DNA from: Clostridiales bacterium UBA1770
Lineage (GTDB): Bacteria; Bacillota; Clostridia; Oscillospirales; CAG-272
Assembly: GCA_002315325.1 (NCBI GenBank)
Contig: DCGU01000020.1
Coordinates: 84 to 64,083 of the forward strand
Direction of reading: 5' to 3'
DNA: 64,000 bases
This document shows, piece after piece, positions 456 to 58,197 of the stretch; within the stretch, counting starts at the first letter, position 1; the number at the start of each line of letters is the position of its first letter. The notes under the pieces are model-generated. The model was not told the DNA's origin. It made no database searches and saw only the letters and a program-made list of their open reading frames with translations. The position numbers and the translations under genes were made by a program.

Positions 456-3263
456 TTAAAAATTGAATTCTTTTTCCCAGGCAAAATCGCCGCTTGCCTC
501 GTAATTTCTCGGCCAATGACCGCACCATTCCGGCACGGCTGCATTTTCCACTTTATCGGCGCTTGGCGTATAGGGCTTAATATCAAGGATAGGCGTCCCG
601 GTGAAAGCGTCGAAATAATCTAAAGATACGATGCCCTTTTCGTAATCAATGCTTTTGATGCCGCACACAGAGACGGCGATGGGATTGGGCCGTTCCGGCG
701 AACGGGTGGCAAAGGTTCCGATAACCTCGGGACCTTTTGTATATGGTTTTTCAACGGTCAGCACGTTCCTATCTTCGTCATTGTCACAGCCGCTGAACCA
801 CCAAATAATCTGGAGATGCGAAAAGCCGTTCAGCCCTTCCAGTCCTTTTTTGAACCTGTCATCCAACACGACGGTAAATTCACCGTTCTCGCACAGCGCA
901 TGGCCGATTTCGTTCATTTTCATACTGTCTTCATCCTCACTTTCGGGTGCTGTATCCGGCAATGCAGCCGCTTCCGTTACTTTGGTTAACGCTTCCAATT
1001 CGTCGTCGGTCAATTTCCTATTTTCAAGGGAATACCGCAGACATTTTGCCGTAATGGTATCTGCTTTTGCAACCATTTCGGCAGGGGTTCCCGTAAACGT
1101 GACGTTTCCGCCGAACTTACCGCCGTCGGGGCCGATATCGATGATATAGTCCGCCGATTTTATCACGTCCAGATTATGTTCGATCACAATCACCGTGTTG
1201 CCCTTGTCCACAAGATTGTTGAACAACGCCATCAGCTTCTCAATATCCGAAACGTGAAGCCCGGTTGTCGGCTCATCCAGGACGTAGATATTCCCTTTAT
1301 GATACAGTTCTTTGGCCAGTTTTAATCGTTGCCGTTCCCCGCCCGACAGCGTGGACGCAGGCTGTCCGAGGGACAAATAACCTAGGCCCACTTCGGACAA
1401 TGCCGTCAACTGTTTGACGATCTTTCGGTTGTCCGAAAAGAACGACGTTGCCTCTTTAACACTCATGGCAAGCACGTCGACGACGTTTTTATCTTTATAG
1501 CGATAGGAAAGTGCCCGAGCGGAATAGCGCTTCCCGCCACAGGACTCACACACGGTGGTAACCGGATCCATAAAAACGAGTTCCGTCGTGATCATGCCCC
1601 TACCCCCGCACGCCTGACATCCGCCGTCGGAATTAAAGGAAAAAAGGGACGCTGATTGTCCTGTTGCCCCGGCGAATACGTTACGGATTTCGTCAAAGAT
1701 GCCCATAAAGGACACGGGTGTGGAACGGTTGTTTGCCGTGATCGGCGATTGGTCCACTAAGACCACGCGGTCTGCATACGTCTTTGCAAAAACGTCACGA
1801 ATCAGTGATGATTTACCGCTGCCCGCAACGCCGCTGACTACGGTAAACACGCCCAACGGAATGTCAACGTTAATTCCCTTGAGATTATGAACCGCAGCAT
1901 TTCGTATCGGTAAAAAGTCTTTCGACACACGGACTTTGCTTTTTATCGGGAGATTTTGTGATAACGCGCGCCCGGTCAACGTATCGGAGAGCAGCAGGTT
2001 TTCGTAGCTTCCCTGAAACATGATCTCGCCGCCGTCAACACCGGCCAAAGGCCCCACGTCGATCACCTCATCCGCAATGGAAATAATATCCTTATCATGT
2101 TCAACCACAAGAACGGTATTGCCTTTATCCCTCAGGTTTCGAAGAAGCTTAACCATACGGTAAACGTCACGCGGATGCATACCTGTTGACGGCTCGTCAA
2201 AAATATACGTCATACCGGTCAGGGCCGAGCCCATATATCTCACGAGTTTTAACCGCTGTGCTTCACCGCCGGACAGAGTGGAGGACTCACGGTCCATACT
2301 GAGGTAAGAAAGGCCGATATCAATCATTCGCGTCAGCGTCAATATCAGGGAATCAATGACGCCCTGTACGCTCGGCTCGTCAATTGTTTGTAACACGTGC
2401 CGCAGCGTGGAAAACTCCATTGCCGTCATATCGGTAATGGAGTATCCCCCGACTTTGGCTGTCAGTGCCATTCTGTTCAGCCGTTTTCCGTGGCACATGG
2501 GACAGTTTTCTTCATATAACAATTCCGTAAGTCTGATGACCGACGCCTCTTTCAACTCGCTCGTGTCACGCCGTAGAAGCATACGGGAGAGATACTGCTC
2601 GATTCCCTCCACGTTTTTATCAAGCTGCTTTCCGTTTTTTTCATCTGCACCGTAAAGAAGACGGTTGCGCTCTTTTTCAGTGAAATCCTTGTATTTTTTA
2701 TCCGTTGGGAAAAGACCGGATTCTTTATATTTTTTCCAATACCAGTTACCGACGTGAAAGGCCGGCAAATCCGCCATACCCTCGTCCCACGTTTTTTCAG
2801 GGTCAATGCGTTCTTCAATTTTGACCTTGACAACCTTGCCGATTCCCGAACATTTGGGGCACATACCGTACGGGTCGTTAAAGCTGAAGAAGCTTGCCGT
2901 ACCCACGTACGGTTTACCGACTCTTGAAAAGATTAATCGAAGCAGCGAATACGTATCGGTAATCGTACCGACAGTGGAACGGGAATTACCGCCGAGCCGC
3001 GTCTGGTCAACGATAACGGATGCCGAAAGGTTTTCAATGCTTTCAGCTCTCGGTTGGTCGTATTTGGGGAGTCTGCCCCGAATCCAAGCGGAATACGTTT
3101 CATTCATTTGCCGCTGGCTTTCTGCAGCAATCGTATCAAAAACGATACTGGATTTACCGGAGCCGGAAACGCCGGTAAAAACGACTATTTTGTTTTTCGG
3201 AATGCGCAAAGATACGTTTTTTAGGTTATTTTGCGTTAGCCCCTTGATAATGATTTCTTCCAT
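456..3263 (-). CDS. UvrA-family ABC ATPase paralog (short, UvrA2/DrrC-like) fused to a C-terminal TsaA/TrmO (YaeB) domain
   Basis: 935-aa ORF with two ABC modules: Walker A GVSGSGKSS and GVAGSGKSS, signatures LSGGEAQR and LSGGERQR. Zn modules are CPKC, CPMCHG, CQACGG and CESCGG. It is too short to carry the UvrB-binding/insertion domains. The last ~155 aa (nt 459-923) read FSHLQIIWWF...GTFATRSPERPNPIAVS...GTPILDIKPY, the TrmO/TsaA signature. Confidence 0.9.
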   Translation of the reverse strand: MEEIIIKGLTQNNLKNVSLRIPKNKIVVFTGVSGSGKSSIVFDTIAAESQRQMNETYSAWIRGRLPKYDQPRAESIENLSASVIVDQTRLGGNSRSTVGTITDTYSLLRLIFSRVGKPYVGTASFFSFNDPYGMCPKCSGIGKVVKVKIEERIDPEKTWDEGMADLPAFHVGNWYWKKYKESGLFPTDKKYKDFTEKERNRLLYGADEKNGKQLDKNVEGIEQYLSRMLLRRDTSELKEASVIRLTELLYEENCPMCHGKRLNRMALTAKVGGYSITDMTAMEFSTLRHVLQTIDEPSVQGVIDSLILTLTRMIDIGLSYLSMDRESSTLSGGEAQRLKLVRYMGSALTGMTYIFDEPSTGMHPRDVYRMVKLLRNLRDKGNTVLVVEHDKDIISIADEVIDVGPLAGVDGGEIMFQGSYENLLLSDTLTGRALSQNLPIKSKVRVSKDFLPIRNAAVHNLKGINVDIPLGVFTVVSGVAGSGKSSLIRDVFAKTYADRVVLVDQSPITANNRSTPVSFMGIFDEIRNVFAGATGQSASLFSFNSDGGCQACGGRGMITTELVFMDPVTTVCESCGGKRYSARALSYRYKDKNVVDVLAMSVKEATSFFSDNRKIVKQLTALSEVGLGYLSLGQPASTLSGGERQRLKLAKELYHKGNIYVLDEPTTGLHVSDIEKLMALFNNLVDKGNTVIVIEHNLDVIKSADYIIDIGPDGGKFGGNVTFTGTPAEMVAKADTITAKCLRYSLENRKLTDDELEALTKVTEAAALPDTAPESEDEDSMKMNEIGHALCENGEFTVVLDDRFKKGLEGLNGFSHLQIIWWFSGCDNDEDRNVLTVEKPYTKGPEVIGTFATRSPERPNPIAVSVCGIKSIDYEKGIVSLDYFDAFTGTPILDIKPYTPSADKVENAAVPEWCGHWPRNYEASGDFAWEKEFNF

Positions 3264-55041: not shown

Positions 55042-55112
55042 AGAAAATTCCAATAAAAAAGAACGGCAGTTGCAGAGTGTTCTAACGGACAGTATTGCAA
55101 GCATATATAAAA

Positions 55113-55160
55113 ATACCGGCTGAAAAGGAAGATAAATTCTTTTTCAGTCGGTATTTTTTG
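55113..55160 (+). terminator. Intrinsic terminator of the 96-aa ORF
   Basis: ATACCGGCTGAAAA...TTTTCAGTCGGTAT (one G-U pair) is followed by TTTTTT. Confidence 0.6.
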
Positions 55161-55181
55161 TCTTTTGTCGCAGCAAGCAAC

Positions 55182-55465
55182 GACTTTGGTAATCCAAAGT
55201 CAGAAAAGGTGAAATATTTGCCTTTCGGCAAATGTGAAATAATCTGCTTTGCAGATTGTGAAATATTGCTACGCAATGTGAAATGAAATAAATCCCCTCA
55301 CGGGAACCCCCAGCACTCTCTTCGTTCGCGCTGGGGAACCCCTATAACGCTCCGCAGAGCATTTCACTGTCCGAAGGACAATTTCACGAATTCCGTTCGG
55401 AATTCTTTTCACAAATCCCGTATGGGATTTATTTCGTTGCAGAGTGTCCTTCGGGACACTCTGCA
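55182..55465. other. Tiled multi-hairpin element: 7-mer linker (GTGAAAT x4, then ATTTCAC-type x4) alternating with unrelated perfect hairpins; candidate structured RNA or novel repeat
   Basis: Read by eye. The hairpins are at 55182-201, 55216-33, 55241-57, 55265-77, 55293-305, 55308-36, 55349-60, 55368-80, 55388-405, 55413-30 and 55438-65. The linkers are at 55209-15, 55234-40, 55258-64 and 55278-84, and at 55361-67, 55381-87, 55406-12 and 55431-37. The structure is certain; its function, strand and transcription are unknown. Confidence 0.5.
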
Positions 55466-55479
55466 TTGCCGCTCTTTTT

Positions 55480-56541
55480 TTATTGGATGATGCCGCCGCC
55501 GACAACAACGTCGCCGTCATACATCACGACAGCCTGCCCCGGCGCAATTGCGCGCTGGGACGTTTCAAATTCCAAATGAAGTTTTCCCTCATCCGTTGCC
55601 CAAACCGTAGCCGGTTGTTCCAACTGGCTGTAACGGACGCGGGCATAAACGCGCATCGGTGACTTGGGAGGGTCACACGCAATCCAATTGCACTCTGCCG
55701 CATCCAGGGATTTGCCCCACAAATCGGCATCGCGGCCCAAATAAACGTTGTTCGTCCGTATTTCTTTCCGTACAACGTACAGCGGTTCCGGCAGTGCCAA
55801 ACCCAGCCCCTTGCGCTGACCGACAGTGTAATGAATCAGCCCCTTATGCTGCCCCAATACACGGCCGTCTGGGCCGATGAAATCGCCGGCGGGATAAGTT
55901 TTACCCGTTGCATCGGCAATAAAGGCGGCATAGTCGCCGTCGGGAATAAAACAGATATCCTGACTGTCGTGCTTGGCGGCATTGAAGAAACCAAGTTCTG
56001 CGGCGAGTGCCCGTGCCTCATCCTTGGAGGCAAAGTTCCCCATGGGGAACAACGTGTGCGACAGTTCGTCCTGCGTCATGGCGTACAGCACGTAGCTTTG
56101 GTCTTTTTGCAGACATTTTGCTTTTTTCAAGAGATACCTTCCGCTGTTTTGTTCTTTTTCAATGCGGGCGTAGTGCCCCGTTGCCAAACGTCCCCAACCG
56201 TTTTGCCGCGCCAGCGACAACAATGCACCGAACTTCAGTTTTCTGTTGCAGTACAGGCAGGGGTTCGGGGTACGCCCCGCTTCATACTCCTGCACGAAGC
56301 GGCCCATGACCTCCGTTCGGAAAGCGTCGGCAAAATCGGCAACCTGAAAGTCAATGCCGACCGTATCGGCTACGTGCGCCGCGTCTGCCGTGGCGGTCTC
56401 CCGATTACCGAAGAGGAACATCGTGACGCCGTGACAATCGTACCCTTCCCTTTGCAAAAGCGCGGCGCAGAGAGATGAGTCCACGCCGCCGCTGAGTGCA
56501 ATCAATATGGAATTGTCGTTTATTACAGAACCGGTGCTCAT
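55480..56541 (-). CDS. mnmA: tRNA 2-thiouridine(34) synthase
   Basis: The PP-loop IALSGGVDSS is present, along with CLYCNRKLKFG, DQSYVL and the C-terminal barrel. The ATG at 56541 overlaps the iscU stop (ATGA). The track ORF is extended upstream. Confidence 0.95.
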   Translation of the reverse strand: MSTGSVINDNSILIALSGGVDSSLCAALLQREGYDCHGVTMFLFGNRETATADAAHVADTVGIDFQVADFADAFRTEVMGRFVQEYEAGRTPNPCLYCNRKLKFGALLSLARQNGWGRLATGHYARIEKEQNSGRYLLKKAKCLQKDQSYVLYAMTQDELSHTLFPMGNFASKDEARALAAELGFFNAAKHDSQDICFIPDGDYAAFIADATGKTYPAGDFIGPDGRVLGQHKGLIHYTVGQRKGLGLALPEPLYVVRKEIRTNNVYLGRDADLWGKSLDAAECNWIACDPPKSPMRVYARVRYSQLEQPATVWATDEGKLHLEFETSQRAIAPGQAVVMYDGDVVVGGGIIQ

Positions 56542-56975
56542 GCCCCGTGGTCGCAGTGCTCGCAATCTTCGCAGGCCGGGAAAATGGCGGGATCGTAAGC
56601 AATACCGTTTTTGTCGTAGTAGTCCTTGAGGGCCTTTTTGATGGCCTCCTCTGCCAATACGGAGCAATGCAGTTTGTGTGCCGGCAGACCGTCAAGCGCC
56701 TCGGCAACAGCCTTATTGGTCAGGGTCAATGCCTGGGAAATGGGTTGACCTTTGATCATTTCGGTTGCCATGGAACTGGAAGCGATGGCGGAACCGCAGC
56801 CGAACGTTTCAAACTTGACGTCAACGATAATATCGTTCTCAATCTTGAGATAAATCTTCATAATATCGCCGCACTTGGGATTGCCGACCTCGCCGACACC
56901 GTCTGCGTTATCGATGACACCGACGTTGCGGGGGTGCTGGAAGTGGTCCATTACTTTTTCACTGTATAATGCCAT
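56538..56975 (-). CDS. iscU: Fe-S cluster assembly scaffold IscU/NifU-like
   Basis: It carries HFQHPRNVG...NPKCGD...FGCGSAIASSS...HCSVLA. Confidence 0.9.
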   Translation of the reverse strand: MALYSEKVMDHFQHPRNVGVIDNADGVGEVGNPKCGDIMKIYLKIENDIIVDVKFETFGCGSAIASSSMATEMIKGQPISQALTLTNKAVAEALDGLPAHKLHCSVLAEEAIKKALKDYYDKNGIAYDPAIFPACEDCEHCDHGA

Positions 56976-57006
56976 TTTTATATCTCCTTATCGCTTTTCG
57001 TAGCAC

Positions 57007-58197
57007 TTATTTCAAAATAAATTGGCGTTTGCCGGTCTGCAGGTCGCGCCAAACGGGCGACATGCCGCGCAGATACGCAACGACCTCGGGCACAACCTGA
57101 CAAATATGCTCGATTTCCTCGGCCGTGTTATTTTCACACAGGGACAGACGCAGCGAACCGTGTGCCACTTCGTGGGGGCGGCCGATGGCCAGCAGCACGT
57201 GGCTGGGGTCGAGAGAACCCGACGTGCAGGCAGAGCCGGAAGACGCACAAACGCCCTTGGCATCCAGCAAAAGCAGGAGTGATTCACCCTCGATGCCCTC
57301 AAAGCAGAAATTGACGTTACCGGGCAGACGGGGCGATACGGCGCCGTTCAAAGCGCTGTGCGGGATTTTGGACAACTCGGCAATGAGTTTGTCCCGCAGG
57401 GCGCCGACGTAGGCAGCGTTTTTATCGATATGATCGCATGCCTCCTTCAGGGCGGCAGCCATACCCATAATGGCGGGAATGTTTTCGGTGCCGGCACGCT
57501 TACCGCGTTCCTGCGCACCGCCCTCAATCAGGTTGGTTAAAATAATGCCCTTTTTGGCATACAGCACGCCGATGCCCTTGGGTCCGTGGAACTTATGGGC
57601 GGACAGGGACAACATATCGATATTCTGTTCCTTAACGTTGATATGCAGATGACCGACGGCCTGAACGGCATCGGTGTGGAACAACACGCCGGCTTCACGG
57701 CAAACGGCGCCGATTTCGGGAATGGGCTGAATCGTACCGATTTCGTTATTGGCATACATCACGGTCACAAGACACGTGTCGGGACGAATGGCGGCCTTGA
57801 CCTCGTCAGCGGTCACAAGTCCCGATTCGTGCACGTCCAAATAGGTGACTTCAAAACCCTCTTTTTCGAGTTTCTTCAACGTGTGCAGTACGGCATGGTG
57901 TTCGAACGCCGTGGTGATAATATGTTTTTTGCCCTTCTTTTCACCCAAACGTGCGGCACTGACGATGGCCTGGTTATCGGCCTCGCTGCCGCCGGACGTA
58001 AAGATGATTTCACGTGCCTCACAGCCAAGGCAGGCTGCCACGGTTGCACGGGCATCAGCCAATGCTTCGGCAGCTTCCTGACCGATGGAGTGCAGACTGG
58101 AAGGATTGCCGTAGGTCGTTTCCATGTACGGCAGCATGGCGTCAATGGCGGTACGACTCATTTTGGTCGTTGCCGCGTTATCAGCATAAACTTGCAT
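57007..58197 (-). CDS. nifS: cysteine desulfurase (NifS/IscS type)
   Basis: The PLP-Lys motif [12 protein letters not shown] and catalytic Cys loop SSGSACTSG are present. Confidence 0.95.

Follow-up and report, generated by a model that had tools for sequence, protein, structure and literature searches.

What kind of element tiles perfect hairpins of unrelated sequence against copies of a single 7-mer, and then repeats the arrangement in mirror image? The question is raised by a stretch of 64,000 nt from Clostridiales bacterium UBA1770 (contig DCGU01000020.1; hereafter the window), in which such an array lies between two convergent genes, one encoding a 96-aa protein and the other mnmA. An earlier note on this DNA, made from the letters alone, recognized no known class in the array. 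A cmscan search against Rfam 15 identifies it as the Gut-1 motif (RF01706) present twice in mirror orientation, with one match at 55207-55289 on the plus strand (64.1 bits) and a second at 55356-55439 on the minus strand (54.7 bits), both covering the full model (1-77) and both above the gathering threshold of 50 bits. Neither this region nor 18 related loci had a match above threshold to any other Rfam family. The motif itself is therefore already catalogued, and its claim to novelty fails by the standard that the note had set, namely a confident Rfam match. Gut-1 was published as three variable hairpins parted by GUGAAAU, was reported solely from uncultured gut bacteria and was rated "Y," likely RNA, on the basis of covariation (Weinberg et al., 2010, Genome Biol 11:R31, PMC2864571); the published motif is one array on one strand, without a stated function (PMC2864571). 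We found no mention of it in the later papers searched, and it has been an orphan motif since 2010, known from a single sentence. The inverted second array is visible, unannotated, in the downstream flank of the Weinberg Stockholm file, where BAAZ01000095 carries three copies of GUGAUAU followed by four of AUAUCAC. What appears to be undescribed is the mirrored unit, its closing helix, the missing RNA-type strand bias, an insertion polymorphism and a link to a gene for a four-helix-bundle protein.

Direct reading of the window finds the 7-mers and hairpins in register where the earlier note had placed them. GTGAAAT stands at 55209, 55234, 55258, and 55278 (left linkers L1 to L4), while ATTTCAC at 55361 and 55381, TTTTCAC at 55406 and ATTTCGT at 55431 are the right linkers R1 to R4; the segments between the 7-mers are all perfect palindromes, with stems of 5-7 bp and loops of 3-4 nt, so that the stems are alike in structure only and the linkers in sequence, as had been proposed. 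The flanking hairpins of 8 and 12 bp are also present. Exact GTGAAAT has 24 matches in the window, with 13.6 expected, and six of them fall within 179 nt where simple arithmetic gives an expectation of about 0.04; the cluster is therefore not due to chance. Folding lies far below shuffles on either strand (z of -11.4 and -12.3), in keeping with the claim that the arrangement reads the same way on both. Two details were incompletely described. R4 (55431-37) is present, but its first five bases belong to a longer segment, the 12 nt of 55424-35, whose complement is 55285-96. The 76-nt core, with GGGAACCCC at 55302 and again at 55334, is likewise present, but it is atypical, as relatives have about 26 nt there, leaving some 50 extra bases in the window; L4 is separated by 148 nt in the window from the far strand (3′) of the long-range helix, B′, versus 87-95 nt in 32 GTDB loci, and in no other fetched locus are the two strands of that helix (B and B′) more than 110 nt apart. 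The parts of the array are as follows.

55182-55201, no strand assigned: 8-bp hairpin (GACTTTGG-TAAT-CCAAAGTC) before the left array, an inverted repeat in the window.
55209-55284, minus strand: left array of four GTGAAAT linkers and three hairpins (Gut-1 match 55207-55289; loop and pair statistics of the family).
55285-55296, plus strand: segment B (GAAATAAATCCC), 5′ strand of the long-range helix (pairs with 55424-55435 in the minimum free energy (MFE) fold; covariation).
55297-55348, no strand assigned: core expansion found only in the window, with GGGAACCCC twice and a 7-bp hairpin at 55308-55336 (relatives have about 26 nt between L4 and R1).
55349-55360, plus strand: core hairpin GCTCC-GCA-GAGC (parse).
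55361-55437, plus strand: right array with linkers ATTTCAC twice, TTTTCAC and ATTTCGT and three hairpins (Gut-1 match 55356-55439 on the minus strand; parse; family loops G..A on the plus strand).
55424-55435, plus strand: segment B′ (GGGATTTATTTC), 3′ strand of the long-range helix (inverted repeat, MFE fold, covariation).
55438-55465, plus strand: terminal 12-bp hairpin with a TTCG loop, right end of the inserted segment (inverted repeat, 100% complementary).

A sequence similar to the 55182-55201 hairpin, ACGGACUUUGGUAAU, occurs in the flank of Weinberg's Gut-1 alignment, and the elements of relatives are closed by hairpins equivalent to 55438-55465.

Relatives were gathered by a pattern scan of GTDB genomes and a metagenome scan for GTGAAATGAAATAAATCC. 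This search for homologues, which the earlier note had advised, recovered the mirrored architecture in at least about 130 true loci (about 33 from GTDB and about 100 from metagenomes), carried nearly all by uncultured gut Clostridia (Oscillospiraceae, Acutalibacteraceae, Ruminococcus, and Christensenellaceae). With the plus strand of the window as reference, the 114 parsed elements share one order: a left array of four GTGAWAT linkers and three hairpins, a B segment of 10-12 nt, a short spacer, a core hairpin, and a right array of ATWTCAC-type linkers with hairpins that ends in a final hairpin and a last linker. B′ consists of the 3′ arm of that last hairpin plus the first five bases of the last linker, and is followed by (G/A)(T/C)TG and then by the closing hairpin. 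The GTGAWAT array always precedes the ATWTCAC array, and no locus has the divergent order with two or more linkers per side. There are two subfamilies, with GTGAAAT and GTGATAT linkers, and some arrays mix both. When loci in unrelated contexts were compared by blastn, the aligned part was 212-217 nt at about 90% identity, and this homology starts exactly at the first 7-mer and ends just beyond the last. Among 77 distinct upstream flanks there is no positional signal except an A ahead of the first G, and promoter-like sites in the window occur at chance level only; a promoter before L1 and a bidirectional one in the core were both rejected on these grounds, and a TGnTATTAT-like match across L4 and B was dropped as it is confined to the GTGATAT subfamily. 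Sampled metagenome-assembled genomes (MAGs) hold about one to three copies, mostly one, and the 64-kb window holds one, so the earlier view that this is not a high-copy family like the repetitive extragenic palindromic (REP) sequences stands; no further copies of the window's own element appear among the matches listed for the fetched loci.

Several loci depart from this plan. Head-to-tail tandems with units of 187-269 nt are found at L266:2133-2466, L304:9179-9464, and L305 (2985-3002 and 3254-3271, minus strand), and in L266 the tandem copies are joined by an identical 26-nt junction (TGAAAAAAGCACTGCCTGACGAATCA). In L279 (match 2895-2912, plus strand) the right array has been lost and B is joined directly to B′ as a simple hairpin, while L262 and L359 lack two right-array hairpins; B and the local arm are direct repeats, which could mediate such losses. 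Near-identical copies 2.7 kb apart (L065:205-400 and L065:2944-3140) differ in their flanks on both sides, and both are followed by a one-way terminator on the strand where Rfam models the right array. Two IMG/VR contigs labeled viral (L170 and L197) carry real GTGAWAT-hairpin arrays. A phage or plasmid origin was rejected, given no blastn match in phage and plasmid collections and real arrays in only two to three of 120 IMG/VR pattern matches. An Akkermansia locus (L007) also has mirrored 7-mer/hairpin arrays. At L007:2314-3301 tandem units lie about 440 bp apart, those at 2314 and 2753 being near-identical, and each of these two has a GTGAAAT-hairpin array followed by a second hairpin array with the linker GAGATT. 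GAGATT is not the reverse complement of GTGAAAT; therefore, the array logic exists with other linkers as well.

Which segments pair over long range was asked of an alignment of 43 sequences. The earlier note had pictured one RNA, a ladder of stacked four-way junctions whose rungs are nested pairings of the 5′ with the 3′ 7-mers. The alignment supports a different helix: B and B′ are paired in 96.6% of cells, nine of the 11 pairs have changed on both sides, and the covariation score is 0.651 versus 0.21 in shuffled alignments, with none of 500 shuffles as high. Sliding the partner by one to three columns collapses the pairing. Where B is not a copy of the local hairpin arm, it covaries with the last linker, and six forms of this pairing occur (GAAAT/ATTTC, TATAT/ATATA, TTTAT/ATAAA, TCTAT/ATAGA, TAAAT/ATTTA, and GATAT/ATATC). 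Because R4 covaries with B and not with L1, window positions 55431-35 pair with 55285-89 rather than with 55209-15, and the ladder is refuted for its outer rung. For the remaining rungs it is unsupported. Between L4 and R1 a two-sided change occurs at the A/T position only, where it separates the subfamilies, the other six pairs being invariant or broken; in five mixed-linker elements, with L3 as GTGATAT opposite R2 as ATTTCAC, the difference is uncompensated; and within the GTGATAT subfamily decay affects the right linkers (ATATAAC, ATAGAAC, ATACCAC), with no change in those on the left. The MFE fold forms the B:B′ helix and leaves the linkers unpaired, and that helix would render the rungs pseudoknotted. 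Over the whole family the left linkers are about 90% complementary to the right ones, and their A/T position agrees between the two subfamilies, as a ladder would have it; we nevertheless regard the nested 7-mer model as extremely improbable. The covariation check that the note had suggested thus bears out the B:B′ helix and not the pairing of the 7-mers. The last right-array hairpin (55413-55430) vies with B for 55424-55435.

A covarying helix does not by itself tell RNA from DNA, and two properties of the minihairpins bear on the choice. The first is wobble pairing. In 329 distinct hairpins the stem pairs comprise 1804 Watson-Crick (WC), 33 GU, and 29 AC pairs, compared with 900 WC, 71 GU, and four AC pairs for 82 tRNAs of these loci, counted in their acceptor and T stems. 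The hairpin parser penalized A.C above G.U, and its bias therefore runs against the near equality of GU and AC. An RNA selected on one strand would tolerate wobble in a way that these hairpins do not. The second is the polarity of the loops, read on the strand where the linker is ATWTCAC. Loops of 3-4 nt of the G..A type make up 99 of 174 in left arrays and 88 of 155 in right arrays, as against a single T..C loop on the left and none on the right; the favored forms are C-GNA-G or C-GNNA-G (for example, GAA, GCA, GTA, GTAA, GTTA, and GAAA), and the closing pair is C-G in 143 of 174 left and 144 of 155 right hairpins. A 2x2 internal loop is frequent in the third left hairpin, where it reads as tandem G.A/A.G on the minus strand and as U.C/C.U on the plus strand. 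The favored strand is thus minus for the left half and plus for the right half, and as the polarity is mirrored onto opposite strands, no single transcript can hold both halves in the favored form; the Rfam model reads the right array on the unfavored strand. Sequences such as GCGNAGC and GCGNNAGC have been described as "mini-hairpin DNA," with a stability that is extraordinary in DNA and far lower in RNA (PMC13037366). Energy parameters for DNA and for RNA favor the same strand, and are therefore uninformative on which of the two is at work. The absence of wobble tolerance, the mirrored polarity and the promoterless unit make the note's proposal of a dedicated structured RNA doubtful.

The surroundings of the element point to insertion. 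An identical 96-aa protein is encoded on four contigs, of which L121 and L122 equal the window. In L123, a sister strain, only 13 nt plus AAAAAAGAGCGGAAATTTCCGCTCTTTTTTT lie between the stop codon (TAA) of the 96-aa open reading frame (ORF) and the end of mnmA, and at this empty site both terminator arms are adjacent and form one intact hairpin, whereas in the window they are split by the features listed here.

55055-55068, no strand assigned: left arm (AAAAAAGAACGGCA) of the bidirectional terminator that stood here ancestrally and is now divided (complementary to 55467-55480; arms adjacent in L123).
55069-55466, no strand assigned: inserted segment of about 398 nt, absent from the sister strain encoding the same 96-aa protein.
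55069-55100, plus strand: decayed copy, at the left, of the terminal hairpin (GTTGCAGAGTGTTCTAACGGACA...), repeating 55436-55458 in direct orientation.
55110-55157, no strand assigned: internal terminator hairpin, with an A run, a 20-bp stem and a T run (terminator scan, plus strand; 91% complementary inverted repeat).
55467-55481, no strand assigned: right arm (TGCCGCTCTTTTTTT) of the split terminator, overlapping the mnmA stop codon (55480-82, minus strand).

Filled and empty alleles differ at seven of 13 nt between the stop codon and the terminator A run (window 55042-55054 versus L123:1150-1162), and at one base (55005) elsewhere in the compared 96-aa ORF and mnmA end. Because those 13 nt differ as well, the allele may be a product of recombination rather than of simple insertion. 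The direct repeat formed by 55069-91 and 55436-58 has 83% identity over 23 nt, and L076 has a like arrangement. The unit ends are inverted 7-mers (GTGAAAT...ATTTCGT), and no clear duplication was seen at the junctions. The form of an intrinsic terminator, a GC-rich hairpin with a T run directly after it, is not that of the array hairpins (at 55438-65 a T run begins about 10 nt past the stem); it is that of the 55110-55157 hairpin, whose T run on the minus strand was read straight from the sequence, and of the split ancestral arms. Split terminators flank the element in L052, L056, L101, and L076 also, and at most other loci a canonical two-way terminator marks the end of the element and adjoins the CCA end of a convergent tRNA gene. 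A tRNA-specific link was rejected, as the neighboring tRNAs are of many isotypes. At orthologous loci with 60-70% protein identity the element is absent and the downstream genes differ; the nearest named homologs of the 96-aa ORF come from Ruminococcaceae and Clostridia MAGs.

The genes around mnmA and the 96-aa ORF form an ordinary housekeeping neighborhood. NifU-like and cysteine desulfurase genes come next on the same strand as mnmA (55480-58197, minus), a HIGH_NTase1-family gene lies upstream of the 96-aa ORF, and genes for YceD, L32, and a DUF5685 protein lie there too, on the opposite strand. In L052 and L056, and partly in L098 and L087, about 130 nt are conserved some 70-260 nt upstream of the first 7-mer, inside the insert, in the part between its left end and the internal terminator (TTCTTAACGGAGAATTT ... 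CAGCATCGCATTTGT ... GCCCAAACCC ... AACAACAGAAAAGAGAAG). No Rfam family reached threshold in this stretch, and the window shows just a weak trace of it (GTTCTAACGGACAG, 55079-92).

The sole recurrent neighbor is a gene of the PF05635/TIGR02436 four-helix-bundle family, which adjoins the left end of 29 of the 114 elements (among them those in L014, L076, L077, L248, L249, L269, and L333), invariably at this end and in one orientation; no conserved neighboring enzymes were found. Transcription of the gene starts at a TGnTATAAT promoter of its own and runs away from the array; some copies have decayed, and the closest solved structure is that of an uncharacterized protein (PDB 2RLD). Across species groups the homologous part is about 600 nt long, taking in this gene and the array and going no further on either side, and in L076 the two lie together inside a split terminator. 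In an Akkermansia MAG a gene of the same family (L007:6171-6509) has mirrored 7-mer/hairpin arrays upstream. The protein had no PADLOC match, and the idea that it is a defense gene was set aside. There is no PF05635 gene beside the window's copy, which looks like an ORF-less derivative of a fuller module.

We lean, tentatively and somewhat short of an even chance, toward the reading that the arrays act as folded single-stranded DNA within a small insertion module, providing a structure-specific site by which it is copied, moved or maintained. Consistent with this reading are the Gut-1 matches on both strands, the B:B′ covariation, the low wobble and mirrored polarity, the discrete promoterless unit, the empty site and the PF05635 association; from these we infer that the element acts as DNA and moves as such, and also any part that the four-helix-bundle protein may play. 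In the window, the two Gut-1 copies and the helix 55285-96/55424-35 would form the conserved core (55209-55437) of an ORF-less copy of the module, and that copy (55069-55466) would be lodged in the loop of the former shared terminator of the 96-aa ORF and mnmA. Each half would display units made of ATWTCAC and a minihairpin with a C-GNA-G or C-GNNA-G loop, and because the left units lie on the minus strand and the right ones on the plus strand, any strand that becomes exposed would show one functional array. By analogy with attC sites, the ends of IS200/IS605 elements and the single-strand initiation (ssi) signals of plasmids, these units might serve the module's machinery as a structure- and strand-specific site with a 7-nt sequence cue. 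A wider claim, which we hold to be possible but rather doubtful, is that Gut-1 is not an RNA gene at all but the single-stranded cis site of an undescribed cassette-like mobile module, usually accompanied by PF05635, that homes to the loops and edges of terminators and to tRNA 3′ flanks in Clostridia and, in a related form, in Akkermansia. Such a module might explain why PF05635 genes occur in hairpin loops of 23S rRNA.

A number of observations weigh against the single-stranded DNA site. The insertion is seen in one filled/empty pair, and recombination or deletion could also explain the empty site. Target duplications and terminal repeats could not be defined at the junctions of the window or of its relatives, and no recurrent transposase or integrase was seen nearby and no enzyme of movement was identified, in surveys that included no search aimed at transposases or integrases. 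The low copy number is unlike that of typical miniature inverted-repeat transposable elements (MITEs), and conservation of the structure over a long time and across families suggests a function for the host or the module beyond selfish spread. GNA- and GNRA-like loops stabilize RNA too, the energy parameters do not separate the two molecules, and Weinberg et al. judged Gut-1 to be an RNA (PMC2864571). Moreover, the array in the window is probably transcribed as part of the 3′ untranslated region (UTR) of mnmA whatever its function, because it sits between the mnmA stop codon and a minus-strand terminator.

That last point leads to the reading under which Rfam files the motif, a structured non-coding RNA, which would be in the window the minus-strand 3′ UTR of mnmA ending at the terminator 55157-55110, and elsewhere a product of read-through from tRNA genes, and whose single-stranded 7-mers might bind the four-helix-bundle protein or another factor. 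It has in its favor the Rfam scores above the gathering threshold, the "Y" rating for covariation given by Weinberg et al. (2010), the very low folding energy, the terminators that follow the element on Rfam's right-array strand in L065, L008, and L090, and lone arrays followed by terminators in L099 and L117. We consider it unlikely all the same: GU and AC pairs are about equal and both rare, unlike in the tRNA stems of the same loci, the loops of the right array read as UNC on the Rfam strand, no one transcript has both halves in the favored polarity, the conserved unit lacks a promoter, and the triloops that predominate are weak in RNA (PMC13037366). The wobble counts are less telling against a two-way transcription insulator or 3′-end stabilizer akin to REP sequences and bacterial interspersed mosaic elements (BIMEs), since selection on both transcripts would likewise leave GU about equal to AC. 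A module lying in terminators between convergent genes or after tRNA genes would on that account have to stop or protect transcripts coming from either side, which would be the reason that it has two-fold symmetry and needs perfect stems on either strand; the equal folding of the strands, the element's own two-way terminator and its position in split terminators and directly 3′ of tRNA terminators all fit. Yet the arrays are needless for termination, because canonical terminators already lie in or beside the element, G.U should be tolerated on the strand with the favored loops and is not, and an insulator or stabilizer does not account for the constancy of the 7-mers, for the B:B′ pairing or for the association with the four-helix-bundle gene, so that we find this reading quite unlikely.

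A further candidate is a duplex DNA site. In that case a protein binding 7 bp would use the element as an operator- or partition-like site, with the palindromes extruded as cruciforms that gather the 7-mers together. Direct arrays that face each other, the mixing of GTGAAAT and GTGATAT in some arrays (as a degenerate binding motif would allow) and a left array adjoining the promoter of the four-helix-bundle gene agree with it. It does not say, however, why the palindromes should be perfect yet free in sequence, or why loop polarity should reach 187:1; spacing that varies from 16 to 26 bp puts the 7-mers out of helical phase, no DNA-binding protein recurs nearby, and the four-helix bundle is no classic DNA-binding domain and its gene is absent at most loci. 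We judge a duplex site very unlikely.

If the arrays do act as single-stranded DNA in an insertion module, a catalogued "RNA" would become a DNA-level element with hairpins whose sequence is free, mirror symmetry between the strands and a cue of 7 nt, the widespread four-helix-bundle genes of the PF05635 family would gain a physical partner, and hairpin loops such as those of terminators would be insertion targets in gut Clostridia, where few such systems are known. Covariation alone is no proof of RNA, and the balance of GU and AC pairs and the polarity of loops are cheap checks. Should the RNA reading be right, the larger architecture and the closing helix would still redefine the Gut-1 family model.

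Compared with Gut-1 as published, the window has the same three hairpins of free sequence with GUGAAAU-type linkers, and its related loci likewise come from gut Clostridia MAGs and from human and animal gut metagenomes. The differences are that the array is half of a mirrored unit of about 215-260 nt, with a covarying closing helix, a frequent four-helix-bundle neighbor gene and insertion behavior, and that the evidence on strand bias suggests an element that may not be RNA, though its Rfam type is "sRNA." Clustered regularly interspaced short palindromic repeats (CRISPR) also alternate conserved and variable segments regularly, but here the conserved part is 7 nt, the variable parts are self-complementary rather than foreign-derived, the array has two inverted halves, and there are no cas genes and no repeats of 23 nt or more; models of CRISPR direct repeats scored 12-15 bits against thresholds of 36-38.

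There are also resemblances to mobile elements and their sites. Like integron attC sites, which are recognized as folded single-stranded DNA and are often paired with one small ORF, the element is a discrete unit of conserved structure and free sequence with inverted 7-nt end motifs. It differs in having GTGAWAT...ATWTCAC where attC has RYYYAAC...GTTRRRY, in the opposite order, in having many perfect minihairpins instead of one long bulged hairpin, and in that no integrase recurs beside it, the flanking ORFs not having been searched for integrases. To our knowledge, integrons are not known in this phylum. REP sequences, BIMEs, and REPINs and the IS200/IS605-derived PATEs are also hairpin elements at gene 3′ ends, paired in inverted fashion and presumed to act as single-stranded DNA, and, as in IS200/IS605, the ends of the window's insert carry similar hairpins in direct orientation. 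In contrast to REP and PATE families, copy number here is low, every hairpin is distinct, the linker rather than the hairpin is conserved, and no RAYT or TnpA was seen nearby, no search having been aimed at transposases; unlike MITEs and REP sequences, the elements in the sampled MAGs lack the many dispersed, near-identical copies of such families, and the hairpins vary both within and between elements.

Other likenesses are to sites that work as folded single strands and to an insertion in rRNA. The ssi signals (the G4 origin, RSF1010 ssiA and ssiB) and the early promoters of N4 share the C-GNA-G or C-GNNA-G loops and short GC-closed stems, and RSF1010 has two ssi signals on opposite strands. 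Those are single hairpins in replicons or phages with known primases or polymerases, whereas here there are three to four hairpins per strand, in a chromosome and with no replication genes. The natural uses of DNA mini-hairpins on record include the G4 origin, RSF1010 ssiA, and the N4 promoters (PMC13037366). The intervening sequences of 23S rRNA genes, finally, resemble the module in that a PF05635 protein is carried by an insertion in the apical loop of a stable hairpin; those insertions lie in rRNA helices and are cut from the RNA by RNase III.

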